From positions 1 to 58,938 of IMG/VR virus record IMGVR_UViG_3300038954_000089: a stretch of DNA of 58,938 bases; one strand, written 5' to 3'. Under the pieces are notes generated by a model. The model ran no database searches. It was given only the letters and a program-made list of their open reading frames with translations, and was not told the origin of the DNA. The stretch comes from a virus (taxonomy: Duplodnaviria > Caudoviricetes). The translations under genes were made by a program, and so were the position numbers. Numbering within the stretch: the stretch's first letter is position 1; the number at the start of each line of letters is the position of its first letter. This document shows positions 3,062 to 53,231 of this stretch, one piece after another.

Positions 3062-4082
3062 AAAGTTAGTCCAGATGGAAGCGGCGCGGACGCTTAAGTC
3101 CAAAAGTGAAATGACCGACAGTGGGGACAAAACCGTTTTTACGCTTTCCGGTGTGACGGTCGTCTCTGGAAAGTCCGGTTATGCCCCGGAGGTGTTGCCG
3201 GATGGTGTGCTCGATACGCAGACAATCGGAAGCCCCGGCAGTTCCAACAATGTGCTGAACATTGCAGCGTTCACGGCGCAGCTCGCCGGGGAAACATACA
3301 GCGTTTCAGCCACAACCGTTGACTTGTCGTCAGTAAGGCCGGAAACTGACGTTGCCAAGTGGGTTTCGATCCAACTCGACAGCGACGGATCGACTATCAA
3401 TACTGTGGAAGGCACTGATAGCGCAGATACGTCCTATTTGACCACTCGCGGGACATCGGCCGGGCAGATCCCCTACGTTGTGGATGGTGATATCGAGCTA
3501 TGTTGCGTGCTCTTCACATCCTCGACCGATGCGGTTCTTACCGAATCGCAGATCTATCAGACTGCCAACACATACCAGGACCGTGTGTATTATCCGATTG
3601 TGAAAACCATCTCGAACCTGGGCATGGGCAACAAGGCGCCGGTTTCTGGGAAAAAGAATTTTTACGTGGAATTCAATGCCGCGCTTGAAGCGAAATGCAC
3701 AGGCGACACGACAAAAAACGTCTATGTGACCGCTTACTCCGTGACGACTTTTTCCGACATTTCAAGGACCTACGATTTCGTACCCAATACCCAGTCTTAC
3801 GGACAGGGATCACGGGCCACATATGACGGCGCGGTGAGTTTCGAGACCGACCCTACATTGAATCAGGGCAGCTTTTCCGCCGTGGTAATTGATGGCATCA
3901 CGGATCAGATCGCGCAGGCTGAAGGAGAAACAATGACGTTTCGGTTTTATCCCGATGAGGATGAAAACCCCTACTACCTTCAGCAATCTAAGGTTGGGAT
4001 CACGCCGGCTTATCCGACCAGCGGGGCGAAAACGGTTTCCGTTACGCTTACCGGGGACGCTGCGGTCAAATTCTTTTCATAG
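3054..4082 (+). CDS. Major tail (tube) protein
   Basis: Position before chaperone and tape measure; beta-rich, T/S/D-rich, 342 aa. Confidence 0.7.
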   Translation: MGKKLVQMEAARTLKSKSEMTDSGDKTVFTLSGVTVVSGKSGYAPEVLPDGVLDTQTIGSPGSSNNVLNIAAFTAQLAGETYSVSATTVDLSSVRPETDVAKWVSIQLDSDGSTINTVEGTDSADTSYLTTRGTSAGQIPYVVDGDIELCCVLFTSSTDAVLTESQIYQTANTYQDRVYYPIVKTISNLGMGNKAPVSGKKNFYVEFNAALEAKCTGDTTKNVYVTAYSVTTFSDISRTYDFVPNTQSYGQGSRATYDGAVSFETDPTLNQGSFSAVVIDGITDQIAQAEGETMTFRFYPDEDENPYYLQQSKVGITPAYPTSGAKTVSVTLTGDAAVKFFS

Positions 4083-4090
4083 GAGCATAG

Positions 4091-4543
4091 ATGCCGAATC
4101 CTGAATGGCTAATCCAAACTGAATTCACGGCGCGGACGAAAGAATTCGACGCGCCAAAAAACCTTACAGGTATGTTCACGGACGGGGAAGAGAAGGTTTT
4201 CCGCGTCCGTGGGCTTACCCTAAATGAAATATGCCGACGTGATGAGGAAGTAACGGCGATCAGAACGGATCATTTTAAGAACCTGATTGCCCGCGCTTTT
4301 GACACCGGGGAGGGCGGCGGACTTGCGGTGGCAGATGAAGCACTTGCCTATTACTTCGGCGACGCAAAAAAGACCAGGGCCGTAACAGTCCATCACATCT
4401 CAAATTGCGTTCAGGGGTGTGAATATCCTGAATTGAAACGCAATCATTGGGTGAAAATCGGAACCATCGCGCCTAAGTTTGTTGAAAAACTTTCCAATGC
4501 TATCGAAAACATGACCGGTGAGGGCGCCCAACCGGGGGAATAG
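4091..4543 (+). CDS. Tail assembly chaperone (gpG-like)
   Basis: Between tube and tape measure; ends in slippery G GGG GAA then TAG. Confidence 0.8.
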   Translation: MPNPEWLIQTEFTARTKEFDAPKNLTGMFTDGEEKVFRVRGLTLNEICRRDEEVTAIRTDHFKNLIARAFDTGEGGGLAVADEALAYYFGDAKKTRAVTVHHISNCVQGCEYPELKRNHWVKIGTIAPKFVEKLSNAIENMTGEGAQPGE

Positions 4544-5013: not shown

Positions 5014-7608
5014 ATGGCCGGCATTCAACGCACAATTGAAATTCTTTTCAGCGGGACCGATAACGTCTCCGGGGTCGCTGAATCCATAGGCGATAACCTA
5101 TCCGGGATCGGCGACGGGATACAGGACGCGACGCAGCCATTCGCCGATCTGACGGCGGCTATCGGCGTCGCTGAAGCAGCGTTTGCCGGGCTTGTGGGCG
5201 TGGCCATCGCGGGCAAGGCCGATATCGAAGACCTGGGGAAATCTATCCAGGCAACGCTCGGAATAACGGCGGATGAAGCGGCAGGTTTGGCCGATGAGGT
5301 TAAGGAAATATTCGCCGAAGGGTTTGACCTGGAGATATCGACAGAGGCCGTTACTTTCGCGTTTCAGCAGTTCCGGGATTCAGCGGAGGAGGATGTCGGG
5401 GCGATTGCATCCAGCGCAACAAAAATATCCCAGGCTTTCGGCGGCGATCTAAAGCAGACAATCGACGCGACCAAAACACTCACCGAGCAATTTGGCCTTA
5501 CAGGGAAAGAGGCGCTTGATTTCATAGCTTCCGGCTTTCAGTCTGGGCTTGACCGCTCCGGCGATTTCCTGGAAACGATCAACGAATACTCTACGCAGTT
5601 TAGTAGCGGCGGTGCGTCGGCCGAACAGTTTTTTTCGCTCCTGGATTCAGGGTTGCAAGGCGGGATACTCGGGACAGACCGCGCCGCAGATGCTTTCAAA
5701 GAGTTTCGTGTCCGAATCCAGGACGGATCGAAATCAACGAGAGAAGGTCTCGAAGCCATCGGAATTAACGCTGCCGACATGGCGGCGAAGTTTCAGAATG
5801 GGAGCATAACGGCGGCTGAAGCGTTTCAGATCGTCCTGAAGAATATTAATGAGACTGATGATCAAAGCAAAGCATTCCAGGCCGGTGTGGCTCTCCTTGG
5901 GACGCAGTTCGAGGATCTTGGCGACAAAGCAGCCAAGGGGTTGACGCTCGCCGGGACAGAGATGGAAGACCTGGCCGGATCGGCTGATCAGGTTGCCGAA
6001 AAGTTTGATACAATTGGCCAGGCTGCACAAGCGGCGTTCAATTCCATTCTTGCATCATTCGCCGATACTGATGCGCTGGATGGATTGTCAGACAAATTTG
6101 AAAAAATTTTTCAAAACATCGCGGAGAATTTCCCGAAGGCTCTGGAGGGTGTAGATTTCTCCGGGCTGAATGATGCGCTGGAAGACGTATTAAGCAACGC
6201 TGAAGGACTTATAAGCGACTTTTTCGGCGGGGTCGATCTGTCCACGCCGGAGGGGCTGGAGGCGGCAATACAGGCCATCGTGGACGCGCTCGAAGGATTC
6301 CAGGATATTGTCGGGGGCGTTATAGACGGGTTCGGGCCGTTAGTGGGATTTCTCGGTGATGCGTTAGATTATTTCAACGATTTGTCGCCGGAGGTCAAGG
6401 CCACTGCCGGCTTCATGCTCGCATTGGCGACGCAGGCGAATCTTGCGGCCGGGGCGTTATCCGGTATCGGCGGGGCTATCAGCGGAGCGGGGCAGGCGCT
6501 TGGTGGGCTTTCAACGGCGGGAAAAGCCGGTACCGCTGCTATCGGAAAACTTGCAACGGCTCTTGGACCGGCTGGCCTCGTGGTTGCCGCAGGGGCGGCC
6601 GGAGCGGCCATCGGGACCCTGATAAATCAAATCCCAGGCGTACAAGAGACGGTTCAAGGGGTAATCGCAGAAGTCGATAATTTTCTCGGTGGAGTGTTTT
6701 CGGCAGGGCCTACGCTTGACGAAATGGAGAAGATCGACAACGCTTTTTTCGCCGCAAAGCAACAGTTTCAGGAGACACAAAAAGCAGCCGAAGATACCAG
6801 CGAGGCAATTGCGAATGTTCCAGGTGAAAAAGAGGTCAACATTGCCACAAACACCGAGGAAGCACAGGCGAAGCTAAATCAACTCGGCGGTGACGTTGAC
6901 AGCCTGACAACCGATGAGTTTTTGCTGGCCATCGGAATCGATGACCAAGCAAGCAATGAAGTTAGACAGGCAAAAGAAGAGTTCCTGGCGCTTGATGGGA
7001 CGGTTGTTGAATTCGTCGGTAAGGCCGACACTGAAGATGCGAAAAAGGCGATTGAAGAACTTGTACCGCCAGACAAACGGCTTGAATTACAGGTTGAACT
7101 CGAAACCGCTCAGATCGAGGCCGACGCGGAGAGATTTGCCGCTCAAATGGAGGCGCTTCAATCGTCAGTTGAATGGGAAGCTAAACTTGATATTGCACAA
7201 GTTGAAGCGAATGCGCGGCAGGTAGAGGCCGCTTTCGAGTCAGTCAATACGACGATCCAAAGCACAGGAGACGTAATTTCAGAATCTCTCGGGCTGCTTG
7301 TCGGTCTGGGTGATGGCATCGGAAACGCGCTTGAAAAATTCGCGATTACAGAACAGATAAGAAAAGAAAATGAACTACGTGAACGGGCAATTAAATTACA
7401 GGAGAAATTGACGGAACAACAAATAGTAACAATGCGAGACCTGTCCGACAGGTTAAACTCGGATGATCCGATCAAATTGACGTTGAACACCGACAACCTA
7501 TCTCCAGCCCTTGAATTGGTTTGGGAGGAGATCCTCGAAGCATTGCAGGATCAGGCCGTGCTTGAGGGTGGTGATATGCTAGTTTCCATGTTGGGGTCGT
7601 CTTCATGA
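5014..7608 (+). CDS. Tape measure protein
   Basis: 864 aa A/G-rich helical protein; GLDRSGDFLETINEYS...TDRAADAFKEF minor-tail/TMP motif. Confidence 0.93.
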   Translation: MAGIQRTIEILFSGTDNVSGVAESIGDNLSGIGDGIQDATQPFADLTAAIGVAEAAFAGLVGVAIAGKADIEDLGKSIQATLGITADEAAGLADEVKEIFAEGFDLEISTEAVTFAFQQFRDSAEEDVGAIASSATKISQAFGGDLKQTIDATKTLTEQFGLTGKEALDFIASGFQSGLDRSGDFLETINEYSTQFSSGGASAEQFFSLLDSGLQGGILGTDRAADAFKEFRVRIQDGSKSTREGLEAIGINAADMAAKFQNGSITAAEAFQIVLKNINETDDQSKAFQAGVALLGTQFEDLGDKAAKGLTLAGTEMEDLAGSADQVAEKFDTIGQAAQAAFNSILASFADTDALDGLSDKFEKIFQNIAENFPKALEGVDFSGLNDALEDVLSNAEGLISDFFGGVDLSTPEGLEAAIQAIVDALEGFQDIVGGVIDGFGPLVGFLGDALDYFNDLSPEVKATAGFMLALATQANLAAGALSGIGGAISGAGQALGGLSTAGKAGTAAIGKLATALGPAGLVVAAGAAGAAIGTLINQIPGVQETVQGVIAEVDNFLGGVFSAGPTLDEMEKIDNAFFAAKQQFQETQKAAEDTSEAIANVPGEKEVNIATNTEEAQAKLNQLGGDVDSLTTDEFLLAIGIDDQASNEVRQAKEEFLALDGTVVEFVGKADTEDAKKAIEELVPPDKRLELQVELETAQIEADAERFAAQMEALQSSVEWEAKLDIAQVEANARQVEAAFESVNTTIQSTGDVISESLGLLVGLGDGIGNALEKFAITEQIRKENELRERAIKLQEKLTEQQIVTMRDLSDRLNSDDPIKLTLNTDNLSPALELVWEEILEALQDQAVLEGGDMLVSMLGSSS

Positions 7609-23996: not shown

Positions 23997-24212
23997 TGCC
24001 CAAAAAAGAAACAAAAAAGCTGCTATGGCATGGTCTGACGAATTTTTCCGCCGCCGGTTCGATTGCCATCCCACAGATGAGACGCCGGAGGCGGTCCAGA
24101 AATGGGCGGATATTTATATCGGCCGTAATGATGTGGGCAAAAAGGCAGTTAAAATAATACTCAAGTAATTGACTTGATACAACAAACCAGCAAGGCCGGA
24201 TTTTTTTGATCT

Positions 24213-24280
24213 GGCCTATTTTTTTCCTTGACAGGGTGCCCTTAGAGGGTATATATTGTTTTCCAGGATAGGGAAAAACA
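24213..24280 (+). promoter_or_regulatory. Repeated promoter cassette, copy 1
   Basis: CTTGACAGGGTGCCCTTAGAGGGTATATA...CCAGGATAGGGAAAAA, near-identical to 26316-26382. Confidence 0.85.
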
Positions 24281-24301
24281 GCAACCATAAAGGAGGAGGC
24301 G

Positions 24302-24829
24302 ATGAGGGCATACCGGAGCATAGACATAAAGGAGTTATACCGGATTTTTAAATCCGGAACGGTAGCGCCTCACAAGTTCAATGGTAGCTGTGACAGCGAT
24401 GCCTCGGCTGGCAGTTTTTTGTCCTTTTGGTTTCCGTCGGATAAACCGGTAAGGATGTCACGCGCATTTTACGTTGTTGTTGAGGCTGACGTTTGTCCTG
24501 ATTATGCCGGCAGGATGCGGTTTCATCAAGACGACGGCTATAATACTTTCACATATTTTGTGAACGAGGTCGCAACAGATAAGTCTGTTTGCCCAAAGCG
24601 CCTATTTATCGACCGAAGCATGATTGATTGGGTCGAGCAAGATTATTGGGATATGTGTTTAACGCTTGACTTAGATGAAACAAACGGCGTTGATTGGGTA
24701 TATGGAGGCCAAGGTGACGATGAAATGGCTGCATTCTACGATTGGATGCGTCAAAATGAGTACGATATCGAGTCAATCCAGACTATCCACTCAATCGCCG
24801 AAATGGCAGAATGGAGGCAAAATGACTAA
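24302..24829 (+). CDS. Hypothetical acidic protein
   Basis: SD AGGAGG; first gene after promoter. Confidence 0.75.
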   Translation: MRAYRSIDIKELYRIFKSGTVAPHKFNGSCDSDASAGSFLSFWFPSDKPVRMSRAFYVVVEADVCPDYAGRMRFHQDDGYNTFTYFVNEVATDKSVCPKRLFIDRSMIDWVEQDYWDMCLTLDLDETNGVDWVYGGQGDDEMAAFYDWMRQNEYDIESIQTIHSIAEMAEWRQND

Positions 24830-24965
24830 CTGGCAGAAATCCTGGATGCGGAGAAAGAAAACCCGCGCCGCCGCCAAACAAAAGGCGAAGATCAAGCGGC
24901 GGCGCAACAAAAAGAACCGGCGCGACGGAATAGATGCGCCATTGAATGAAAGGGAGGTGACATAA
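24822..24965 (+). CDS. Small highly basic peptide
   Basis: MTNWQKSWMRRKKTRAAAKQKAKIKRRRNKKNRR; SD GGAGG. Confidence 0.6.
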   Translation: MTNWQKSWMRRKKTRAAAKQKAKIKRRRNKKNRRDGIDAPLNEREVT

Positions 24966-25309
24966 TGAACGAGCAATCACACGAACACAACGGAAGCGAA
25001 AATCCATGGGGGCAGTGGGAATGCCACTCTCATTGCCCCGAATGCGACCGAGAAGAAGGCCGCACCTGTGACCATTGCGGCCAGCCTGAAACCTGGGGCC
25101 ACTCCACCGATTGTCCGGAACATCCCGACAACCAGCCCTGGAATTGCCCGGAATGGAACCATAACGTGCATGGGTGCAATGGATGCCACGGATACGGCGA
25201 TTGCGGCCGCCAAGATTCGCAAAGAGGGCAAGACGTTTACTGCGGCAACTGCGGCGCTCCGATGGCCCCAGGTACACGTGATTGTGGTATGTGCGGGAGC
25301 ACATACTAA
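24965..25309 (+). CDS. Cys/His-rich metal-binding protein
   Basis: Multiple CxxC and HxxxC motifs; SD GGAGG. Confidence 0.65.
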   Translation: MNEQSHEHNGSENPWGQWECHSHCPECDREEGRTCDHCGQPETWGHSTDCPEHPDNQPWNCPEWNHNVHGCNGCHGYGDCGRQDSQRGQDVYCGNCGAPMAPGTRDCGMCGSTY

Positions 25310-25466
25310 TGCAATCCATAACCCTAATCCGCGGTCTTCCGGGCAGTGGCAAGTCAACCATTGCCCGGAAAATGGTCGTAGACAAAAAGCAACCGGCAAT
25401 TATAACAACGTCCGTGGCGTACCGAACGAGGTCATGGACAGAATGAGAGAGAAATGGGAGGATTGA
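25309..25466 (+). pseudogene. Internally deleted AAA_33-type P-loop kinase gene
   Basis: MQSITLIRGLPGSGKSTIARK then a family-like C-terminus GNYNNVRGVPNEVMDRMREKWED in another frame. Confidence 0.65.
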
Positions 25467-25468
25467 TT

Positions 25469-25636
25469 ATGAAAATCGTAGAAAGTTGGATTATTGACTA
25501 CCTCATGGTGGTCAAATTGGAGGACGGCAGTTACCGCTATGGAACCGAGGCAAACATTTTCGGGTTCAATCGCCTCGACAAAAATGTGGCTGAAAAAATG
25601 ATTGCAACAGGAAAACGAGAAGAAGGGATTTATTAA
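25469..25636 (+). CDS. Hypothetical protein
   Basis: SD GGAGG then ATG 25469. Confidence 0.6.
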   Translation: MKIVESWIIDYLMVVKLEDGSYRYGTEANIFGFNRLDKNVAEKMIATGKREEGIY

Positions 25637-25650
25637 GAAAGGAGATTGCC

Positions 25651-26004
25651 ATGTTCAGAAACTTCACACCCCATGTAGTAAAGATCATTGACAGCAACGG
25701 CAATGTCGCCATGGAGATCCCGCCAGAAGGCGTACAGGTACGAGTGAAAGAGCAGGTTGAATACGAAGGTATTATTCAATTCAAGCACGAAGGTTTTTTC
25801 CGTGGCGTACCTGTAGTCCGCAAGAAATATGCCGAAATCGAGGGGTTGCCGCAACAAGAAGATGGCGTCACGTTAATTGTCAGCGTGATTGTTTTAAACG
25901 CCTCAGACCGGTCCGATCTGGTATGCCCCGATACAGGCCCGGATTCGGTCGTGCGGGATGAAGACGGTAATATTCTCGGAGTTCGCCGCTTCCAGAAAAA
26001 ATAA
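25651..26004 (+). CDS. Phage hypothetical protein (N[LF]TPH-type)
   Basis: NFTPH...IEGLP...LIVS...DLVCPDTG..VRDEDGNILGV. Confidence 0.75.
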   Translation: MFRNFTPHVVKIIDSNGNVAMEIPPEGVQVRVKEQVEYEGIIQFKHEGFFRGVPVVRKKYAEIEGLPQQEDGVTLIVSVIVLNASDRSDLVCPDTGPDSVVRDEDGNILGVRRFQKK

Positions 26005-26005
26005 A

Positions 26006-26062
26006 GCCGAAACGCCCTTCGGGGCGTCCGTCGGGGCGGTTCCCGGCGCTGACGAGGCAACC
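26006..26062 (+). ncRNA. Type II hammerhead ribozyme
   Basis: GCC GAAA CGCCC-TTCG-GGGCG TC| CGTCGGG-loop-CCCGGCG CTGACGA GGC; full core; loop GGTT can pair with downstream AACC. Confidence 0.9.
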
Positions 26063-26080
26063 AAAAATGGAGTTTTCATA

Positions 26081-26302
26081 ATGACACCAAACCAAATCAG
26101 GGAGGCAAGGGAACATCTCGGGCTATCACAGGCCGGAATGTCCCGCCTAATGGGGGTACACAAATCGACCTATTTAAAGTGGGAGCATGGAGAAAATAAC
26201 CTTTCCGCCGCCGCGGGGACGCTGATAAACTTGTTTCTATACCTCAAAAAAAAATTACCAGCATCTAAGTTCAACGAGATCAAGCGTTTTTTTATGGAGT
26301 GA
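26081..26302 (+). CDS. XRE helix-turn-helix regulator
   Basis: MTPNQIREAREHLGLSQAGMSRLMGVHKSTYLKWEHG. Confidence 0.85.
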   Translation: MTPNQIREAREHLGLSQAGMSRLMGVHKSTYLKWEHGENNLSAAAGTLINLFLYLKKKLPASKFNEIKRFFME

Positions 26303-26315
26303 TTTTTTTTACTCC

Positions 26316-26382
26316 GGCCTATTTTTTTTCTTGACAGGGTGCCCTTAGAGGGTATATATATTTAACCAGGATAGGGAAAAAA
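26316..26382 (+). promoter_or_regulatory. Repeated promoter cassette, copy 2
   Basis: Near-identical to 24213-24280. Confidence 0.85.
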
Positions 26383-26404
26383 CATCAACCGGGGAGGAAA
26401 GACA

Positions 26405-26830
26405 ATGACAAATGCAGAGCTTAAAAACAAGATCGAAGCAGCAATAAAAGCCCACTCCATGCTCAACGAAATGGAGTCTGAATATCTTTATTATGGTCTC
26501 AGATTTGAAGATGCCGACAGGCAGATCGGAGAAGTTTGCGGAAACAGCCGGCACAATCCCGACCGGGAAGATGAGAGGGAGTTTCCGGAATACGGGTCTG
26601 CAGATTATGAGGGGATGGAAGAGCTTGACGGAACATCGGCGTGGATGATCGATGCGTCCGGTTGGTGGGTCAATTCATTCAAATCTTTTTGGATGAAGGA
26701 CGACGCCGATGTCGCAGTAATGGCCGACCATTGTTACATTATCGCCGGAGATGCCAAAAAGACCCATGACGACGCCGACGAAAATGAGATTGTAATAGGT
26801 GGCGCGGTTGTCATTGAAAAATTGTTTTAA
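26405..26830 (+). CDS. Hypothetical acidic protein
   Basis: SD GGAGG; first gene after promoter. Confidence 0.75.
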   Translation: MTNAELKNKIEAAIKAHSMLNEMESEYLYYGLRFEDADRQIGEVCGNSRHNPDREDEREFPEYGSADYEGMEELDGTSAWMIDASGWWVNSFKSFWMKDDADVAVMADHCYIIAGDAKKTHDDADENEIVIGGAVVIEKLF

Positions 26831-26853
26831 ACAACCCAAAAAAGGAGGAAGCC

Positions 26854-27087
26854 ATGATCACGAAACTGCAATACCTCCGTGATGAGGCGATCAGCATGAT
26901 CGCCGACCTGGAGACAAAACTGCGCGGCATGTCTGAGAAGGATCTGGAGATAGTCACGGCCCGGCTGACGGATCTCCGGCTTGAACTGGAAGACCGAAAA
27001 CAGAATGCGCCGAAAGACGGCGGCGGTGGCAGGGTCTACAACGATCTGCTGGCGGAATACACCCTGCACGAAGATGGGGGGTGGTGA
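26854..27087 (+). CDS. Hypothetical protein
   Basis: SD AGGAGG. Confidence 0.65.
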   Translation: MITKLQYLRDEAISMIADLETKLRGMSEKDLEIVTARLTDLRLELEDRKQNAPKDGGGGRVYNDLLAEYTLHEDGGW

Positions 27088-27088
27088 A

Positions 27089-27436
27089 ATGGATTACAGG
27101 AAAGAAAAAGCCGAGAAACTTCGGCAACGTGCCGCAATGATCGCAGAGGCGGCCGGGGGGTTGGACGACTTCTCACAGTATGAGGCTGAGATGGCGGAAG
27201 CCGCAGGGCTCCGGGCTGAAGCAAATCGCCTCGATCCTCCGCCCCTAAAACAACTAAAAACTCCACAGATACAGCTTTGTGTCCTATGCAACAAAATCGC
27301 TGCCAACAAAGGATGGAAGGTCATCGAACGGCAAATGGCCCTCTGCCCAGATTGCGAGGATGCGACACCAGAGGATCTCAGGCTTACCGGCCGCCGGTTG
27401 TTCCACGCCGCCAAGGTTCTGGAGCGGCAGGCATGA
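27089..27436 (+). CDS. Zinc-finger-containing hypothetical protein
   Basis: CVLC...LCPDC. Confidence 0.6.
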   Translation: MDYRKEKAEKLRQRAAMIAEAAGGLDDFSQYEAEMAEAAGLRAEANRLDPPPLKQLKTPQIQLCVLCNKIAANKGWKVIERQMALCPDCEDATPEDLRLTGRRLFHAAKVLERQA

Positions 27437-27819
27437 GACTATGGCACTATAAGCTAATCCCCCACCTTGACCGTCAGCGCCTACTCGGCCAGCACCGAGA
27501 ATGCTGTGCCTTGAGGGGCCACGGGTGGGGGAAAAAACACGCGACGGTAGACTACGTTTTCGAGCACCACTATGCCATGCTGTTCAACTATCATTGCCTC
27601 ATAATGGCAGAAATGACGAGGCGAGGATATAGCGTCACAGACGATTGGTGGATTCCACCATATCGCGGCAAGAAGATAGGCCATGACCACTCACCTTTCA
27701 CCAAAATCCCGAACAATCAATGCATCTACCCGGATCATGACGAAAAGTATCTTAATGAATGCACTGAGAATTTGAGGGACAAGGGGGTGAACATCTGCCG
27801 AAAAACGATTGTCGGTTAA
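27433..27819 (+). CDS. Pyrimidine dimer DNA glycosylase/endonuclease V-like protein
   Basis: MRLWHYKLIPHLDRQRLLGQHRECCALRG.GWGKKHATVDYVF...EMTRRGY. Confidence 0.85.
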   Translation: MRLWHYKLIPHLDRQRLLGQHRECCALRGHGWGKKHATVDYVFEHHYAMLFNYHCLIMAEMTRRGYSVTDDWWIPPYRGKKIGHDHSPFTKIPNNQCIYPDHDEKYLNECTENLRDKGVNICRKTIVG

Positions 27820-27837
27820 CTGCTGGATAGGTGAATT

Positions 27838-28092
27838 GTGAATGTGAGTGAGTGTACCGGTTGTGGGCAATGCTGTTTGTCAGAGCAATGTGAGGCTTCA
27901 AAAATAGCCGTTGGATCGTCTGACAATATCTGCCCTTTTTTAAAACTATCATCACCTGGTTTTTATAGATGTCTCTTGGTTGAGCTTGAAGAATCGACAG
28001 ATTTAGACCCATTAATTAAAAATGCTTTAGCGATTGGTTTTGGATGCACAAATGATTTTAAGTCACCTAACCAGGGTAGTACAGCGGACTAA
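27838..28092 (+). CDS. CxxCxxCC (YkgJ-like) cysteine-cluster protein
   Basis: CTGCGQCC...CPFL...YRC. Confidence 0.7.
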   Translation: MNVSECTGCGQCCLSEQCEASKIAVGSSDNICPFLKLSSPGFYRCLLVELEESTDLDPLIKNALAIGFGCTNDFKSPNQGSTAD

Positions 28093-28116
28093 GGCCGCTC
28101 ACCTCAAACGTTATAG
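28065..28116 (+). other. attC-like recombination site (degenerate)
   Basis: ACCTAAC...AGCGG/CCGCT...GCTCACC TCAAAC GTTATAG. Confidence 0.55.
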
Positions 28117-28192
28117 AATAAAGATGTATGCCTAAACATCGACTAAGCGAAGAAGATTTTTATCCCACAACCATCTGCATTAGGAGAAAAAA

Positions 28193-28606
28193 ATGAAGGC
28201 ACTCTCGATACAACAACCGTGGGCGTGGGCAATCTTGCACGCGGGAAAGGATGTTGAAAACCGGACGTGGACACACAATTATCGTGGGCAAATTTTGGTT
28301 CATGCCGGCAAAAAGTTTGACAAAGCTGGATATGCTTGGCTGATCGATCAATCTCTTAGAAACGGCCCCATAAAGCTAACTATCGATGATATTCCAGCGA
28401 AAGAAGATTTTTATCGTGGCGGACTGGTCGGCCGTGTAGTAATCAAAAAAATGGTAAGGTCGATCGGATACTCTCCGTGGATGTTCGGTCCGTGGGGATG
28501 GGTCCTGGAGGACCCAGAGCCTATCGATTTTTTACCATACACGGGGCGCCTCGGATTGTTCGATGTCAATATAACCCGTCATACGAAAGGATGCGCCCGG
28601 CAATAG
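28193..28606 (+). CDS. ASCH domain protein
   Basis: MKALSIQQPWAWAILHAGKDVENRTW...YRGQILVHAG. Confidence 0.9.
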   Translation: MKALSIQQPWAWAILHAGKDVENRTWTHNYRGQILVHAGKKFDKAGYAWLIDQSLRNGPIKLTIDDIPAKEDFYRGGLVGRVVIKKMVRSIGYSPWMFGPWGWVLEDPEPIDFLPYTGRLGLFDVNITRHTKGCARQ

Positions 28607-28640
28607 GAGGCCGGCCGCACCGCTCAATTCTACGTTATAC
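28569..28640 (+). other. attC-like recombination site
   Basis: ATATAAC CCGTC...TGCG.CCGGC/GCCGG.CGCA...GCTCAAT TCTAC GTTATAC. Confidence 0.65.
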
Positions 28641-28663
28641 AGGGAAAGGGGAAATGGCAGAAT

Positions 28664-29140
28664 ATGCGTTCAATACCAAGAGACGAACAGCAAATAAAAA
28701 CGTGGGAGCGGCATAAAAAGGATATCAACTTGGCCGCAGCAGAGTTGAAGATGACACCTCAAAAGCTACGCTACCGGTTGATAGCGTGGGGAGAATACAA
28801 GCCTACAACAATACAGGCTTGTAGAAATTGCAACAGAGATTTCTACGCAAGACGAAATCATGTTCGATGTCCAGAATGCCGCCGTAAGGAGGCGACCAGA
28901 AAAAACTCAGTAAAAAGGCGGAGAAAGCTGGATGTTGAGAAGCCAGAAAAAGTACCGCCCCGATGGCATGATTGCCGATTTTACGAGCGGTGCCTCAACG
29001 AATCGGCACGAAAAAGTGCGGAAATGGATTGTAGGGACTGCAATTACTATTCCGAGATTTCACTCAAAGAACAGGTTGCCAAGTATTCCACATGCGTGGA
29101 AAGAAAAGTGCATGGATTCACACCTATGGAGACGTTTTAA
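28664..29140 (+). CDS. Zinc-finger/HTH hypothetical protein
   Basis: AAAELKMTPQKLRYRL; several CxxC pairs. Confidence 0.65.
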   Translation: MRSIPRDEQQIKTWERHKKDINLAAAELKMTPQKLRYRLIAWGEYKPTTIQACRNCNRDFYARRNHVRCPECRRKEATRKNSVKRRRKLDVEKPEKVPPRWHDCRFYERCLNESARKSAEMDCRDCNYYSEISLKEQVAKYSTCVERKVHGFTPMETF

Positions 29141-29365
29141 ATGCTTTATATCCCGAAGAAAATTCTTTCGAACTATCAGCTTACATATACGGACAAAGTG
29201 TTGTGGGCGATCTTTTCAGACAACCCCACAATTACCAACAGGGAAATTGGAAGTAAGGCAGGAATAGGCCCGAATGCGATTACGAGAAGCCTAAAAAGGC
29301 TGGAGCATTTTGGGTTTGTTGCAATCGACCCGAGTAGGCGCAATGGAGATTATCTAGGAAAGTAA
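29141..29365 (+). CDS. Winged-helix DNA-binding protein
   Basis: ITNREIGSKAGIGPNAITRSLKRLEHFGFV. Confidence 0.75.
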   Translation: MLYIPKKILSNYQLTYTDKVLWAIFSDNPTITNREIGSKAGIGPNAITRSLKRLEHFGFVAIDPSRRNGDYLGK

Positions 29366-29392
29366 AGGTAACCAAGTAGGATCGTTTTCTTC

Positions 29393-29421
29393 TTGACATC
29401 ACTAAACAAATATTATAATAT
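29393..29421 (+). promoter_or_regulatory. Sigma70-type promoter
   Basis: TTGACA followed by AT-rich TATTATAATAT. Confidence 0.7.
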
Positions 29422-29452
29422 TACAGGCAAAGAAAGGGGGTGGTAAGGGGTG

Positions 29453-29602
29453 GTGACAATCATATCAATAAGCGCAGACAAGGAGGTGATCGACAAGTTT
29501 CGTGATCTGGCGCACAAGACGCGCCGGACGCAGAAAGATTTGTTCGCGGAAGCTGTTGGGTTGTTGGAGGAGAAGATAAAGGAGGAGGAGAAGAATGGCT
29601 AA
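29453..29602 (+). CDS. Ribbon-helix-helix protein (not in ORF track)
   Basis: MTIISISADKEVIDKFRDLAHKTRRTQKDLFAEAVGLL; paralog of 41463. Confidence 0.7.
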   Translation: MTIISISADKEVIDKFRDLAHKTRRTQKDLFAEAVGLLEEKIKEEEKNG

Positions 29603-30629
29603 AAAGGATGATAAATCAGGTCTGGATCTTCTGCGGGAACCGTTTCCAGCCAATCTTGTCTCTAAGTTGCCAAAACCGACCAAGCAGCAAACGGAAGCCG
29701 TTAAAAAGGATTTTAAGGCAGGCATTAGGTGCAAAGTGTGCGGGGCGTGGCACCATCCTAAAGTTGTCCATTTGGATTATGTAGGCCACGCAGCCTTAAC
29801 CGACCGACTTCTTGATTGTGATCCTGAATGGAATTGGGAGCCAATGTCAACAGACAGTAACGGCGCCCCAATGATCGACGACAATGGCGGCATTTGGATT
29901 AAATTAACGGTTTGCGGAGTTACCAGAATAGGATATGGGCACCCAGACGGAAAAACTGGAGGCAACGCGATCAAGGAAACAATCGGAGATGCACTGAGAA
30001 ATGCAGCCATGCGCTTTGGTGCAGCCCTTGATTTGTGGCACAAGGGCGATTTGCACCCTGATGAGGGGGACGACACTGGAGGTAACGGCACAGGGGCGCG
30101 AGAGGCTGATCCGCAGGATGCGACAGGCACACAAAAAGACGATACCGATGTCAGGATTAAAATGATTCGGAAAGAGATCACTGGGTATCTCAACTCCGAA
30201 TGGCTGGCATTCGACAAGAAGTCCGCGGGCGAAAAGTTCATGGAAGAAAACCCTTCTTTGGCCAGGCTGGAAAAATTTCGAGACAGCCTGTTGAAGCTAT
30301 ACGGCGAATGGCAGGAGGCGGAACGTCAGAAAAAAGAGGAGGATGACAAAAAACCTGAAAACCCGGTCGAAAAACCGTCAGAAAAAATGTGGCGGTGTAT
30401 CGTTTGCAATTCACAGTCAAAGGGCGGCAGCGACGATGCTACCAAAGACTGGAAACTGATATCAACCCAACAGACCGGGCCGCACATGGGCCTATGCCCA
30501 AAGCACGCCGGAGAAACAGCCGACAGCCTCCGCGATCAGGCCGAAGCCGCGAAAGAGAAAGGCAAAACGGCCGACGTGACGCGGTATGAAAAGGCTGCTG
30601 GCATTCTGGCAGACATGAAGGGCCAATGA
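29595..30629 (+). CDS. Rad52/Sak-like single-strand annealing protein
   Basis: LDYVGHAALTDRLLDCDPEWNW...KETIGDALRNAAMRFG. Confidence 0.8.
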   Translation: MAKKDDKSGLDLLREPFPANLVSKLPKPTKQQTEAVKKDFKAGIRCKVCGAWHHPKVVHLDYVGHAALTDRLLDCDPEWNWEPMSTDSNGAPMIDDNGGIWIKLTVCGVTRIGYGHPDGKTGGNAIKETIGDALRNAAMRFGAALDLWHKGDLHPDEGDDTGGNGTGAREADPQDATGTQKDDTDVRIKMIRKEITGYLNSEWLAFDKKSAGEKFMEENPSLARLEKFRDSLLKLYGEWQEAERQKKEEDDKKPENPVEKPSEKMWRCIVCNSQSKGGSDDATKDWKLISTQQTGPHMGLCPKHAGETADSLRDQAEAAKEKGKTADVTRYEKAAGILADMKGQ

Positions 30630-30667
30630 AGGGCCAGAACCACCTCACATGAAACAACAATATAACC

Positions 30668-30700
30668 GCCCTGGCTCATGACCAGCCGGGGCAGAAAGGA
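30668..30700. repeat. Hairpin direct repeat, copy 1
   Basis: GCCCTGGCTCATGACCAGCCGGGGCAGAAAGG, similar to 31392-31423. Confidence 0.8.
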
Positions 30701-30709
30701 ACCACAAAC

Positions 30710-31384
30710 ATGCATTTTCATTGTGAGCTAATTATGCCAAAGTCAAGAAACATAGAGGAAGATGTCGAACAAATCATGGGAGACTTTTACGAAGGAAAGG
30801 ACGATGAAGAAATACATGGCGGAGAGTTTCATGATTTTTATGTCATAGGGGGGCGGTTCGCTGGAGCAAAGGAGTTGTGCAGGTACAGTGAAGACAAGCT
30901 GTCAGAGTTCTACAAGTTTTTACGGGAAAAAAAGGTGACCGTTTCCGGTCTCCAATTTGGCAAACAAGAAATTTATCCATCGTCACAGATCCCGATGGTG
31001 GATGAAGCATGGAACCGCTTTTTCCCGACTGAAAACGGAGAAACCACCCCTTGTCCGCTTTTTGCACACTCCAACGACCAGCGCGAAAATCTCGATATCA
31101 TTTCTTGCGACATCTGTAACGTGGATGAAATTCCAACAAATCTCGAATGTGAAAGGGTTATAATAGCAGGCCCTTCTATAAGAGAGGACAAATTAGAAGC
31201 AAAATATATGATTTGCAAGGATGTATGGAATGGCGTAAACCATATGCCGATAGCATGGGATTTACGCGTTTTATCCGCCATTGAGATGTTTGAGGAAAAA
31301 GGCGAGAGGTATCGGAATATTTATTGGGAGAAAATCAGGCCACGGCCAGACCATATATGTATAACAATTGACTATCACTTATAA
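30710..31384 (+). CDS. Hypothetical protein flanked by hairpin repeats
   Basis: MHFHCELIMP...DFYVIGGRFAG...TIDYH. Confidence 0.75.
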   Translation: MHFHCELIMPKSRNIEEDVEQIMGDFYEGKDDEEIHGGEFHDFYVIGGRFAGAKELCRYSEDKLSEFYKFLREKKVTVSGLQFGKQEIYPSSQIPMVDEAWNRFFPTENGETTPCPLFAHSNDQRENLDIISCDICNVDEIPTNLECERVIIAGPSIREDKLEAKYMICKDVWNGVNHMPIAWDLRVLSAIEMFEEKGERYRNIYWEKIRPRPDHICITIDYHL

Positions 31385-31391
31385 AGTACGA

Positions 31392-31423
31392 GCCCCGGCT
31401 CACGACCGGCCGGGGCAGGAAGG
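31392..31423. repeat. Hairpin direct repeat, copy 2
   Basis: GCCCCGGCTCACGACCGGCCGGGGCAGGAAGG. Confidence 0.8.
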
Positions 31424-31428
31424 CTACG

Positions 31429-31893
31429 ATGACTAACCTTGTCGCGATAGATCCAGGCCCGGAGAAAAGCGCGTGGGTGTTATTTGATGAAGCACCGGTT
31501 ATGGCCGGGATCGATGACAACGAAAAACTCGTCAGAGAGATAGAGTTTTTAGATACGACACACCTGGCCGTCGAAATGGTCGCTTCATACGGGATGCCTG
31601 TTGGTCGAGAGGTTTTTGAAACTGCATTTTGGGCCGGACGTTTCGTAGAGGCATGGTTCGGAACATGGGAAAAAGTCTACAGGTCGGACGTAAAAATGTT
31701 TCTGTGCGGCAACATGAGGGCAAAAGATAGCCATATTCGGCAGGCACTGATAGACCTGTATCCTCGGACCGGAGGCGGTAAATGCCCTCAGATAGGGACC
31801 AAGGCGAAGCCGGGGCCGCTCTATGGATTCAAAAAGGACATGTGGGCCGCATTGGCGGTTGCCCATACCGTGGCTGGTAGACACGTTCCATGA
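31429..31893 (+). CDS. RuvC-like Holliday junction resolvase
   Basis: LVAIDPGPEKSAW...LAVEMVASYGM...DMWAALAVA. Confidence 0.8.
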   Translation: MTNLVAIDPGPEKSAWVLFDEAPVMAGIDDNEKLVREIEFLDTTHLAVEMVASYGMPVGREVFETAFWAGRFVEAWFGTWEKVYRSDVKMFLCGNMRAKDSHIRQALIDLYPRTGGGKCPQIGTKAKPGPLYGFKKDMWAALAVAHTVAGRHVP

Positions 31894-32237
31894 AATGCCC
31901 ATGCTGCGGCACGCCGTTGGTTATAGACGAATGGGGCGGCTGGATATGGACCTGCTTCCATTGCGATTACACGGCCAGGCCAGCAACGGATGAAGAGATT
32001 GAGGCACAGGAGAGGGTCGTTCAATTACCGTTTGAGGAAATTGGGGAAAAATGGATGCCTGACATAAGGGGACAGCTAAAAATAAAAAGTGTTAGGTTAA
32101 GGCAAACTGGCGATGTAGCCATATACCTTGATGTCTACCTTGAAGACGAGGACCAAAGGGTTTTCAAGGCTCAAACATCCAGTTTTTTGTTTGACCTTGA
32201 ATGCGTTGTTACGGCTGGTGATAAGTCCACACCGTAG
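31890..32237 (+). CDS. Zinc-ribbon hypothetical protein
   Basis: CPCC...CFHC. Confidence 0.6.
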   Translation: MKCPCCGTPLVIDEWGGWIWTCFHCDYTARPATDEEIEAQERVVQLPFEEIGEKWMPDIRGQLKIKSVRLRQTGDVAIYLDVYLEDEDQRVFKAQTSSFLFDLECVVTAGDKSTP

Positions 32238-32312
32238 TCATCACTTTTAGCCCAAAAATGATAAACAAAAGAATTTTACGTTTAATTTTTCAAGACAAGG
32301 AAGGATTGATTT

Positions 32313-32717
32313 ATGGCGGGTTTAAACAAAATGTCAATTATCGGCTTTTGCGGTCGGGACAGTGAGGTTCGCTATTCTGCACAAGGGATGGCAATTACAA
32401 ATTTCTCCGTCGCGGTCTCTGAGAAAATCAAGGGCGAGGACAAAACGTTATGGTTCAAAATTGTGTGTTTCGGTAAGCTCGGAGAATTGATGGGCGAGAT
32501 GATCCGACGGGGACAACAGGTTTACATAGAGGGCCGCCTCCAGACAAGCGAATGGGAAGACAGGGACGGTAATAGGCGATTCAACCTCGAAATTGTGGCG
32601 AATCAGGTCATTCTGCTCGGCAGCAAATCCGACAACAACCAATCCCGCCAGCGTCACGACGAACAAAAGCGGAATGGGTATCAACCGGAAGCGGATGATG
32701 ACTCAATTCCGTTTTAG
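32313..32717 (+). CDS. ssb: Single-stranded DNA-binding protein
   Basis: LNKMSIIG...VYIEGRLQTSEWEDRDG...acidic DDDSIPF tail. Confidence 0.95.
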   Translation: MAGLNKMSIIGFCGRDSEVRYSAQGMAITNFSVAVSEKIKGEDKTLWFKIVCFGKLGELMGEMIRRGQQVYIEGRLQTSEWEDRDGNRRFNLEIVANQVILLGSKSDNNQSRQRHDEQKRNGYQPEADDDSIPF

Positions 32718-32760
32718 CGTTGGAGTTTCTGTATGTTAACCTGTTATAATGCGAGGTAAA

Positions 32761-33123
32761 ATGAACTGTGACAAATGCGGGAGGTTTCACGATCATGGAC
32801 CTGGGAGTGCCTGGAAAGTGGTTTATTCAGGCGGACCTATTCCCATGCCCGATCGAGAGATTACGAGATGCCGGGCGTGCGTAGAAAAGCATGGCCCATT
32901 TTTACCGCAATACGGAATTAAGTCAGGCCATAGCTGTGGGCTCGTATCATCAGGGGAACAAACGTCAATACCTAATAATGCTGCGGTATCTTGCATAAAT
33001 GTGAATTGCGGGTGGGAAGGGGAACTCAAGGATTGCCCTGTTGAATGGGCCATAGAAACCTATGAAACTGGTCTATATCAAGTAGCTTTATGCCCTAAAT
33101 GTGGTGAAGAGTTTGATATTTGA
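32761..33123 (+). CDS. Zinc-finger hypothetical protein
   Basis: Several CxxC pairs; SD GAGG before ATG 32761. Confidence 0.6.
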   Translation: MNCDKCGRFHDHGPGSAWKVVYSGGPIPMPDREITRCRACVEKHGPFLPQYGIKSGHSCGLVSSGEQTSIPNNAAVSCINVNCGWEGELKDCPVEWAIETYETGLYQVALCPKCGEEFDI

Positions 33124-33170
33124 TCAAATATGGACATGCGCGGGGTGGTCGTTAATTAAGGAAAATCACC

Positions 33171-33341
33171 ATGAAACGAAAAGACGTTTTAAGGTTGGCC
33201 GATTCACAGGACACAATTATGCGTGTATTGGCCAGGTCGTGGCTGGATGCGGATACAGGTGATTGGCCCCGCCAAAATGCGGGACAATGGAAGAGCCTGG
33301 TCGAGAAGGCCATTTCGCAACGGATCGAGGAGGGGGGATAG
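33171..33341 (+). CDS. Small hypothetical protein (56 aa)
   Basis: Manual ORF MKRKDVLRLADSQDTIMRVLARSWLDAD... Confidence 0.5.
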   Translation: MKRKDVLRLADSQDTIMRVLARSWLDADTGDWPRQNAGQWKSLVEKAISQRIEEGG

Positions 33342-33393: not shown

Positions 33394-33457
33394 ATATAAC
33401 CCGTCAGTTGAGGCGGACGCGGAAAAAGCCCCGCGCCGCTCACTTTAAGAGTTATGC
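33394..33457 (+). other. attC-like recombination site (best conserved)
   Basis: R'' ATATAAC, 5 nt, L'' AGTTGAGG, GC stem, L' GCTCACT, 6 nt, R' GTTATGC; 64 bp. Confidence 0.75.
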
Positions 33458-33477: not shown

Positions 33478-33681
33478 ATGATTATTGAAATATATACACC
33501 GATGAACACGAAGCATGTGGTGGAAGCGGACAAGGAAGATAAACACCGTATCCTTGATTTGATTTTCTCAGCCGAATACGGCGACATAGATATCAAAACC
33601 CCTTCCGGCAGGCTTATTATTCCTCATGAGGTAAAACGACGATGCATTTTTATGGTCAAAGATCAGCATTCAACGGCATAA
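33478..33681 (+). CDS. Hypothetical protein inside an attC-bounded cassette
   Basis: SD AGGAG; stop TAA lies within GCATAAC. Confidence 0.7.
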   Translation: MIIEIYTPMNTKHVVEADKEDKHRILDLIFSAEYGDIDIKTPSGRLIIPHEVKRRCIFMVKDQHSTA

Positions 33682-33740
33682 CCCAATACCGAACCGGACC
33701 GGCGAAACAGCCAGCCGGCCGGTTACATTAGTCGTTAATC
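33676..33740 (+). other. attC-like recombination site
   Basis: GCATAAC...AACCGGACCGGC/GCCGGCCGGTT...GTTAATC; 65 bp. Confidence 0.65.
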
Positions 33741-34143: not shown

Positions 34144-34205
34144 CAATCCTATGAATTTATCGAGGCCTTTATCGACGTTTCCGCTTGACATATGGGAGTT
34201 ATAAT

Positions 34206-34478
34206 ATGGGAATTCACATTTTTTTATTAAAAGAAAGTAGCGCCGATCATCCTGATTGGGATTCGCTGAGACAAATCAACGACAGGAATTTTGCTGGATT
34301 AATTGATTATGAGCAAGTCGATATAAATCCAGATGATGAAGAAGAGTTTAGACCAGGAGATTTGGATAAATTAGTGGATAGAGTCAACAGAACGGATTGG
34401 TGCAATAAAGAAAGGTATTTGCATTTGATCGATTTATTAGAAAAAAACGATGAATACTGGCTTTATTTTTCAAGGTAA
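34206..34478 (+). CDS. Hypothetical protein
   Basis: SD GGAG then ATG 34206. Confidence 0.65.
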   Translation: MGIHIFLLKESSADHPDWDSLRQINDRNFAGLIDYEQVDINPDDEEEFRPGDLDKLVDRVNRTDWCNKERYLHLIDLLEKNDEYWLYFSR

Positions 34479-34668: not shown

Positions 34669-34771
34669 TTTATGCGCGGGGTGGGCGTTAATTGTCGCGG
34701 CGTTTATCGACGTTTCCCCTTGACACGGGGGCGGGGTCAGCGGATCAAGAGATTGAGGCACAGGAGATGAT

Positions 34772-34960: not shown

Positions 34961-35040
34961 GTTTATCCCCTTGACACAGGGGCGGGGTTGGGGTAGGGTA
35001 TACTTGTGATGAAAACATATACTATAGCATTGGGGGCGAC

Positions 35041-52346: not shown

Positions 52347-53231
52347 GTGCTTTCCACTTTCCGAACAGTTAGACAAGCTGAAAACCCACGTCAAGCGGCA
52401 TATGATGCCAAGCTGGCAGATCTGACCGGCAAAGCTCAGGATTATGTTGAATCGCAAGTTACCGGCGTTCTGGATCTGCTGCGGGCCGCACAAAAGGATG
52501 TTTTATCCGCTGTTGCTGGTACGGATTGGGATACATATCACAACGCGGAACGGAAAAAAGCCATTGAGGAGGCAATCAAAACATTTGAGGCCAAAGCAAA
52601 AGATTTTGTCTCCGAATCCCAAAGGGAATTGATCGACGCCGGCATTGATATTATAGATGAACCGATGGCCGCCGCTGGCGTTGACGTCAAAACAAAACTG
52701 CCGGCATTCCCTCCGGAAAATTTGAATATCATGGTCGAATACTCGGCGGATTTGATAACAAATGTTTCGGATGACGCGATAACAAAAATCAATGGCGTTA
52801 TCAGTCGGGCGATCACAGGCGGGCTGACGCTGCAAGAGGCCATCGACCAGATAGGCCGCAACCTGGACTCACCGGGCGTTTTCCGGTCCATCGCCAATCG
52901 GGCCGAATTCATAGCCCGCACAGAGATGGCCAGAGTTAACAATGCGGCACGTCAAGCGCGGGCAAATCAATTATCTGGGATGTTCCCGGAGTTGAACCCA
53001 CAAAAAAAATGGATTCACTCAGGAAAACCAAAAAAGACCCGCCGGCGGAATCACTACAAGGTTGACGGTGAGATCGTGCCGGTCGATGAAAAGTTTTCAA
53101 ACGGGATCGACTATCCGCACGCTCCGGGACTGCCGGCGAAAGAGGTTGTGAATTGCGGATGCACCCATGTCCTTGTCATGGATTGGGATGCGGCCGGGAA
53201 GGATTTTCCAGCATTTGAAAAATTAATATAA
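52347..53231 (+). CDS. Head morphogenesis protein (MuF/SPP1 gp7-like)
   Basis: RAEFIARTE...KKW...RRNH..VDGE...F...YP...EVVNCGC. Confidence 0.9.
   Translation: MLSTFRTVRQAENPRQAAYDAKLADLTGKAQDYVESQVTGVLDLLRAAQKDVLSAVAGTDWDTYHNAERKKAIEEAIKTFEAKAKDFVSESQRELIDAGIDIIDEPMAAAGVDVKTKLPAFPPENLNIMVEYSADLITNVSDDAITKINGVISRAITGGLTLQEAIDQIGRNLDSPGVFRSIANRAEFIARTEMARVNNAARQARANQLSGMFPELNPQKKWIHSGKPKKTRRRNHYKVDGEIVPVDEKFSNGIDYPHAPGLPAKEVVNCGCTHVLVMDWDAAGKDFPAFEKLI

Follow-up and report, generated by a model that had tools for sequence, protein, structure and literature searches.

A probable integron-type cassette with an ASCH-domain gene, and two small clusters of attC-type sites, in the genome of an uncultivated phage

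The ASCH gene, its bracketing sites and a second pair of sites

The DNA analysed in this work (hereafter the window) is the whole IMG/VR virus record IMGVR_UViG_3300038954_000089, 58,938 bp in length, which carries direct terminal repeats, has a G+C content of 49%, and hosts genes lying almost all on the + strand. Matches to PHROGs include tape measure, terminase and head proteins, a DnaD-like loader and a primase/helicase. The locus of interest includes a gene encoding an ASCH-domain protein, an upstream open reading frame (ORF) encoding a CxxCxxCC protein (hereafter CxxC ORF), and two sites, called S1 and S2, which bracket the ASCH gene and resemble the attC sites of integron cassettes. The members of the pair are 452 nt apart. 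A second pair, S3 and S4, separated by 218 nt, is found 4.7 kb downstream (Table 1). Both pairs sit inside the replication and recombination module of the phage. The evidence discussed below makes it probable that the ASCH gene resides in an integron-type cassette. Since at least two attCs are found close together, and the record contains no integrase, the two groups would represent small clusters of attC sites lacking an integrase (CALINs).

Table 1. Positions of the features discussed in the text
Feature	Sequence	Positions	Strand	Description
CxxCxxCC ORF	window	27838..28092	+	84 aa; cargo upstream of S1
S1	window	28065..28116	+	short, partly degenerate attC-type site, 52 nt; R3 covariance model
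Putative ASCH cassette	window	28111..28634	+	524 bp; from TT of the G|TT of S1 to G of the G|TT of S2
ASCH-domain gene	window	28193..28606	+	137 aa; phrog_3193, E 1.5e-43
S2	window	28569..28640	+	attC-type site, 72 nt, canonical register; R2 and R3 covariance models
Single-strand annealing protein gene	window	29595-30629		PHROGs
Holliday-junction resolvase gene	window	31429-31893		PHROGs
SSB gene	window	32313-32717		PHROGs
56-aa ORF	window	33171..33341	+	upstream of S3; possible cassette cargo; no family match
S3	window	33394..33457	+	best-formed attC-type site, 64 nt; R1, R2 and R3 covariance models
67-aa ORF	window	33478..33681	+	between S3 and S4; no family match; stop TAA inside R'' of S4
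S4	window	33676..33740	+	probable attC-type site, 65 nt; register score 16/21
intI	Methyloversatilis sp.	119077-120021		four attCs just upstream on the opposite strand
attC-like hairpins of L005	IMGVR_UViG_3300035179_000003	3982-4038, 4399-4469, 5393-5475, 5625-5695	one strand	R2 10.0-18.6 bits

The ASCH gene scores weakly against the Pfam ASCH profile (19 bits, under the cut-off of 21.2). Relatives occur in 85 records of cultured phages, and several of these are annotated as ASCH. Its last 12 codons and its stop are located inside S2, the TAG (28604-28606) falling in the 8-nt loop of the site. The match to L001, the closest relative (65%), extends to residue 125, corresponding to nt 28567, 1 nt before S2, and the relatives matched over most of their length (n=11) all stop at residues 124-127. 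Similarly, S1 encodes the last 11 codons and the stop of the CxxC ORF, the TAA (28090-28092) falling in a 7-nt loop. The only relative of this ORF (L030, 60% identity) is similar up to residue 73, at nt 28056, which leaves 8 nt to S1; the relative runs 33 aa longer, overlaps the next gene, and is not followed by a hairpin. That both ORFs read into the palindromes had been noticed in a preliminary description of the window, and is borne out by the position of the two stops. Since protein similarity to relatives stops just before S1 and S2, the two sites appear, from these comparisons, to behave as separate modules fused to gene ends.

S2 features, in its 5' part, R'' ATATAAC, a 5-nt spacer, L stems of 3 bp and 6 bp and two unpaired bases on the 5' arm, and, in its 3' part, a 10-bp upper stem (9 pairs), the 8-nt loop, L' CCGCTC and R' GTTATAC. 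Two mismatches are found in the 6-bp L stem (4/6). In S1, R'' ACCTAAC and R' GTTATAG enclose L'' CAGCGG, which pairs 5/6 with L' CCGCTC. The site has, besides the L mismatch, an extra spacer base, lacks the upper stem, and measures 52 nt. Its 3' end TCAAACGTTAT is identical over 11 nt to that of the aacA4 attC in L039.

The limits of the putative ASCH cassette were set by applying the canonical crossover 5'-G|TTRRRY-3', as given in PMC9892861, to the boundaries drawn by the covariance models described below. The unit would begin at the G|TT of the shorter, degenerate S1, and end with S2 fused to the 3' end of the gene. Its layout is that of an ORF which has a ribosome-binding site of its own and lies upstream of its own site, on the same strand; a scan of 24000-33000 called no promoter-like site in the stretch from S1 to the ASCH start. 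The GTTATAG at the start (28110-28116) and the ATATAAC at the end (28569-28575) are 6/7 complementary, as originally noted and here recomputed.

S4 and S3 are new sites, S3 having been noticed on reading the DNA near S4. It shares with S2 the 5' sequence ATATAACCCGTCA. Its L'' GAG(g)CGG pairs 6/6 with L' CCGCTC, with one bulged base, R' is GTTATGC, and the site is otherwise intact. S4 carries R'' GCATAAC, R' GTTAATC, a 6-bp L stem paired 6/6 and an upper stem paired 5/5, and lacks the 3-bp stem (0/3). R' of S3 is the exact complement of R'' of S4 (7/7), versus 5/7 for the R' and R'' of S4 itself. This is the pattern expected of a cassette once closed into a circle. The S3/S4 pair encloses the 67-aa ORF, S2 closes the ASCH unit, and S1 the preceding CxxC ORF. 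All four sites have TAAC...GTTA core ends, lie on the + strand, and overlap or closely follow the end of a + strand ORF. The order ORF, then own attC, on the same strand, recurs in ASCH/S2, 67-aa ORF/S4, CxxC ORF/S1 and 56-aa ORF/S3. R''/R' complementarity is 4/7 in S1, 6/7 in S2, and 5/7 in both S3 and S4, real attCs used as controls ranging from 3 to 7/7.

The sites had been described as decaying. This fits S2, with its two L mismatches, S1, short and devoid of an upper stem, and S4, devoid of the 3-bp pairs, but not S3, which is well formed. The uneven state of the sites fits a phage unable to maintain them without an integrase of its own.

The second cluster is flanked by a 22-nt direct repeat, ATGCGCGGGGTGGKCGTTAATT, found at 33136-33157 and 34672-34693 on the + strand; the two copies are 21/22 identical, and none is expected in shuffled sequences. 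Both lie just 3' of a stop codon, and delimit 1.5 kb carrying S3, S4 and five small ORFs. The end of the repeat, TGGKCGTTAATT, resembles an attC spacer plus R'; the 5' half of a site is absent, and no model match was obtained.

Comparison of the sites with real attCs

According to PMC5371416, attC sites measure 57-141 bp and are imperfect hairpins, in which the central spacer is unpaired, L'' and L' form stems, one arm carries extrahelical bases, and the terminal structure varies. S2 (72 nt), S3 (64) and S4 (65) fall within this size range. The scores reported here were obtained with three covariance models (R1, R2 and R3) built in the course of this analysis, not with IntegronFinder or HattCI. 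R1 was built on 18 Vibrio attCs in their canonical structure. As a control, it retrieved 15 attC matches in six plasmid loci at 14.2-35.7 bits (filters off), all others scoring at most 9.9; the 15 matches comprise 13 in four re-searched loci, the aadA1 site (L034) and the dfrA14 site (L038). Since a model made of Vibrio sites recovers plasmid attCs, it generalises across attC classes. R2 was built on 13 class 1/2 attCs aligned by R1, Vibrio material serving as independent control: 24 Vibrio attCs scored 28-46.5 bits, everything else at most 12.3. Noise of R2 in the window reached 13.5 bits, and the highest non-attC match over the ~289 kb searched at E<=10 was 15.2 bits. R3 was built on nine attCs of a Methyloversatilis genome which carries an integron integrase, and its noise in the window reached 12.9 bits. 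A MAFFT alignment of attCs of mixed length was discarded, since the 3' halves were misaligned, and was not used for any model.

S2 scores 24.7 bits with R2 (E 5.5e-4), 30.5 with R3 (E 3e-6) and 9.7 with R1 (E 4). S3 ranks first in the window with R1 (16.3 bits, E 0.059), and scores 27.0 bits with R2 (E 1.3e-4) and 37.8 with R3 (E 1.8e-8). With R2 both sites score below the independent control attCs, and exceed the highest non-attC match by more than 9 bits. Because R2 was trained without any sequence from the window, the significance of S2 is independent of the window. S1 reaches 21.8 bits with R3 (E 1.4e-3). In the canonical register, S2 and S3 align with R2 and R3 from end to end, S1 and S4 with defects. 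Covariance-model scoring had been proposed as a check in the preliminary description, in which attC-type sites were claimed to bracket the ASCH gene: models of real attCs return exactly the two sites, on the + strand and, with R3, with the same boundaries to the base, S2 rising above noise with R2 and R3, S1 with R3 only. A search against Rfam gave no attC match in 26000-31000.

The canonical register was derived from 29 real attCs. Its 5' arm includes R'' (7 nt), a 5-nt spacer, a 3-bp stem, an unpaired base, a 6-bp stem, an unpaired base and the upper stem, its 3' arm the 6 bp, the 3 bp, a spacer of 5-6 nt and R' (7 nt). On a Watson-Crick score with a maximum of 21, real attCs range from 11 to 20 (median 14), and S2 scores 16. 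This value was attained by 2 of the 3070 AAC..GTT candidates in the window, S2 and S4, versus 0.2 per shuffled window. The score is 16 on the top strand, versus 10 when the reverse strand is read, and the arm bearing the unpaired bases is the one that bears them in real attCs. When four sites from the window were combined with four from Methyloversatilis, the canonical pairs (n=16) held in 77% of the cells, versus 27-39% when the register was slid, and covariation over the same eight sequences was 0.261 versus 0.125, reached by 0/500 shuffles. The above results indicate that the sites have, in sequence and predicted folding, the architecture of real attCs.

A stretch at 52753-52803 on the + strand features a perfect 7-bp inverted pair, TGATAAC..GTTATCA, and scores 15.5 bits with R1 and 13.5 with R2, being unlisted by R3. 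Only R boxes and spacers align, inside a head-morphogenesis gene (52347-53231), and the stretch was rejected as attC, being probably due to chance.

The pattern shared by S2 and S3, TAACCCGTCA..CCGCTCA..GTTAT, was found at only two places in a 596-Gb genome collection. One is the chromosome of a Methyloversatilis sp. metagenome-assembled genome (NZ_OZ260098.1), in which R2 finds five attCs in 4.2 kb, at 26-54 bits. The second, in Perlabentimonas (L040), has no attC by R2, and was taken as due to chance. The integron integrase of Methyloversatilis matches TIGR02249 at 479 bits (cut-off 265). The cluster of five attCs is ~513 kb away from the integron, has no adjacent integrase, and is interrupted by a DDE transposase gene; the cassettes of this separate cluster encode Cys_rich_CPCC, DUF7674 and HNH_5 proteins.

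By sequence, the phage sites resemble most closely the attCs of this betaproteobacterial chromosomal integron. They have in common the R''-spacer stretch TAACC(C)GTCA, with the spacer GTCA, L'' GAGCGG, L' CCGCTC, and a spacer with R' CGTTA, all in the same register. In contrast, L'' arms are mismatched in the phage (4/6 in S2, 5/6 in S1), S1 lacks an upper stem, and the G+C content is 49% in the phage versus 55-69% in the Methyloversatilis attCs. No cargo is common to the two, and the identity of the host is not implied. The phage sites also share the architecture of class 1 integron attCs, such as those of aadA1 and aacA4, among others, but the L boxes differ in sequence, and no resistance gene is involved.

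Competing explanations

Several observations weigh against the hypothesis of an integron-type cassette. With the general models S1 does not rise above noise (9.8 bits with R2, E 6.4; unlisted by R1), and at 52 nt it is shorter than the published 57-141 bp. The scores of S4 are close to noise with each of the three models (14.3 bits with R2, E 0.39; 13.3 with R3, E 0.56). E-values of covariance models are rough by the tool's own warning, and the difference in bit scores was therefore relied upon instead. Of the nine sites used to train R3, one had been found through the motif derived from S2 and S3; because of this circularity, a Smith-Waterman comparison was made with the other eight Methyloversatilis attCs, which gave p ~0.002 for S2, ~0.001 for S3 and 0.14, not significant, for S4, and a summed score for S1 exceeding those of 3000/3000 random window segments. 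The 6/7 complementarity between R' of S1 and R'' of S2 has no discriminating value, as the present R' of S2 also pairs 6/7. Simple folds as DNA are no better than shuffles for S1 (z -1.2 and -0.6) and for the top strand of S2 (-0.95); z is -2.3 for the bottom strand of S2, and -2.9 for S4, for which 0/200 shuffles were equally stable. A loose count of R boxes with any 5-bp hairpin, admitting both S1 and S2, gave 27 places, versus 25 +/- 6.7 in shuffles. Both the loose count and the plain fold energy have little power, since real attCs overlap the background on both: those of a Vibrio phage integron and of class 1/2 integrons mostly do not match the strict consensus, and their folding energies overlap those of the background. 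A strict RYYYAAC..GTTRRRY scan, which gave 0 matches in the window, was dropped, as most real Vibrio attCs fail it too.

Other points against the same hypothesis come from the phage and its relatives. Six-frame profile searches of the entire 58.9-kb record gave no match to a tyrosine recombinase (PF00589), an integron integrase (TIGR02249) or a serine recombinase (PF00239). In the same searches control genomes were matched by all three profiles, and tyrosine recombinases in 14/14 of them. As no recombinase of any kind was found, activity on the sites cannot be assigned within the phage genome. A complete integron is likewise absent, to the extent that no tyrosine recombinase occurs in the six frames, attI having not been searched for. 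No relative sharing both flanks was found in the collections searched, so that a cassette-precise indel was not seen. Cultured phages gave by DNA only a 151-nt match, located elsewhere; the ASCH gene, the 158-aa ORF at 28664-29140, the single-strand annealing protein gene and the CxxC ORF gave in IMG/VR single-gene matches with no synteny, and metagenome contigs matched neither the 158-aa ORF nor a 30-mer of S2. The preliminary description had suggested that typical phage genes travel here as cassettes. The ASCH gene is indeed of phage type and bracketed by attC-type sites; movement was not observed. Lastly, among 14 other viral ASCH loci, L005 alone carries an attC-like site where the gene ends (18.6 bits with R2). 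Weaker matches are found on the same strand near this gene (13.6, 12.5 and 10.0 bits). The ASCH relative of L005 ends inside the third of the hairpins, two of which share ACAACAAA..AATGGTG..CACCATT..CGGACGTTGTA, and one of these has a perfect 7/7 R''/R' pair.

Chance, or ordinary hairpins, was initially held as by far the most plausible reading, and was overturned by the covariance models built from real attCs. That GC-rich hairpins merely happen to lie between TAAC and GTTA now appears very improbable. The loose count of R boxes, the weak fold values, and the local similarity between the gene ends at S1 and S2, which ranks 78th of 3741 pairs, are compatible with chance. In contrast, chance would hardly explain the distance of S2 and S3 from R2 noise over ~289 kb, the score of S1 relative to random segments, and the motif CCGCTCA..GTTA common to S1, S2 and S3, found three times in the window, always on the + strand, versus 0.13 expected (at least three in 0/100 shuffles).

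Alternatively, the sites might be structured intergenic elements of the phage itself, such as hairpins at RNA ends, weak terminators or regulatory stem-loops, which converged on the shape of attCs, and would promote modular shuffling by homologous recombination. The location at gene ends, with a stop codon inside, suits such elements, and the short blocks common to S1, S2 and S3 could support homologous exchange. The second cluster is also flanked by an unrelated repeat, the 22-nt sequence mentioned above, and attCs themselves are thought to be weak terminators, according to PMC9892861. Yet, no run of T follows any of the sites, and none was called in a terminator scan of 24000-33000. Register, spacer lengths, arm asymmetry and AAC/GTT cores match models trained only on bacterial attCs, and the motif shared by S2 and S3 led to a real attC cluster. 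The site motifs have 0 matches in IMG/VR, and the shared one is therefore not a widespread phage element. On these grounds the hypothesis is judged unlikely.

A last possibility is that fragments of a bacterial integron were wrongly assembled with phage sequence. The record is a metagenome assembly, and within S2 the Logan contigs of the likely source run are interrupted. However, one of them spans 26432-28623, through S1 and ASCH into S2, the next starts at 28594 and extends over 49.6 kb, and depth is even across the region (12.3-13.3). In addition, the cargos of the cassettes are phage-type genes, the record has direct terminal repeats, and the sites occupy two distinct locations in it, surrounded by phage genes. 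An artefact of this kind is thus extremely improbable. The break within S2 occurs with a 30-nt overlap (28594-28623), as does another at 26432-26460; it may mark a branch of the assembly graph, i.e. another sequence in the sample sharing the 30-mer, for which no match was found in JGI metagenome contigs. No joint across the cassette was found in the contigs of two runs, one of them the likely source; the contigs of the second cover only about 26880-27641, and these contigs do not bear on excision.

Additional elements were identified in the window. A type II hammerhead ribozyme (Rfam RF02276; 26005-26066, + strand; 53.3 bits versus a gathering score of 37, E 2.9e-9) directly follows the stop codon of the ORF 25651-26004. 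Further partial look-alikes of this stretch are found in source-run contigs, one of which has a depth of 22 and carries an insertion of 2 nt. The promoter-like module GTGCCCTTAGAGGGTATATAT is present twice, at 24236 and 26339, as is the module CCCCTTGACACRGGGGCGGGGT, at 34716-34737 and 34966-34987, and near-consensus TTGACA..TATAAT-type sites occur at 34186-34208 and 29393-29421. The repeated modules and near-consensus sites suggest that the host uses an ordinary sigma-70.

CALINs in phages and the cassette pool

The integron-type cassette thus remains the preferred explanation. In the model proposed, the integron integrase of a host, expressed during infection, would insert circular cassettes into phage DNA, either by attC x attC recombination, or by recombination of attC with a secondary GTT (attG) site. 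Candidate left junctions, picked by eye only, are GTTAACT (27813-27819), at the stop of a denV-like gene which spans 27433-27819, and GTTAATT (33151-33157). The same host enzyme could still excise or exchange the cassettes, plausibly less efficiently at the mismatched sites. In the absence of a phage integrase the sites would not be maintained, and would drift.

Phage CALINs are already published. In Qi et al. 2023 (PMC9892861), 17 CALINs and 4 integron or integrase elements are reported among 10,705 phage genomes, on the rule of at least two predicted attCs within 3 kb with a covariance score of at least 20 bits, and IntI1 recombined 5 of the 6 phage attCs tested. The window provides a further example, from an uncultivated phage, and with a cargo of phage type. 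As in those phages, virulent ones included, one-gene cassettes in the same orientation are carried by a genome without integrase. In contrast, the cargo is here an ASCH gene, whereas methyltransferases are stressed in that paper, two of the four sites are weak, and the sites are known from sequence alone. Insertion of cassettes outside att sites, driven by integrases and giving small CALINs (SALIN, attG), is described in bioRxiv 10.1101/2022.09.11.507474, where 1362 of 2961 CALINs have just 2 cassettes. The phage clusters are similarly made of two cassettes, with no integrase or transposon nearby, but bacterial chromosomes were concerned there, and the left junctions are only candidates here.

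No paper in the full-text literature searched mentions the ASCH domain as cargo of an integron cassette. Integron cassettes have mostly been associated with adaptive and resistance genes of bacteria. It is conceivable, though somewhat doubtful, that accessory genes of phages are recruited into the integron cassette pool and exchanged through it, phages that infect integron-bearing hosts being both a source and a sink of cassettes. According to this hypothesis, an attC would become joined to the 3' end of an ordinary phage gene and take the place of its C-terminal tail, as in the CxxC ORF and the ASCH gene. If true, this would bear on how cassettes arise. This phage touches on the origin of cassettes, and on the extent of their movement outside integrons, as an integrase-less example in a complete genome, with attCs supplying the C-terminal codons and the stop of two cargos. 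Should the integrase of a host still recombine the sites, the mosaicism of phage accessory genes would be linked to the cassette pool, and phages would represent a route for cassettes between hosts.

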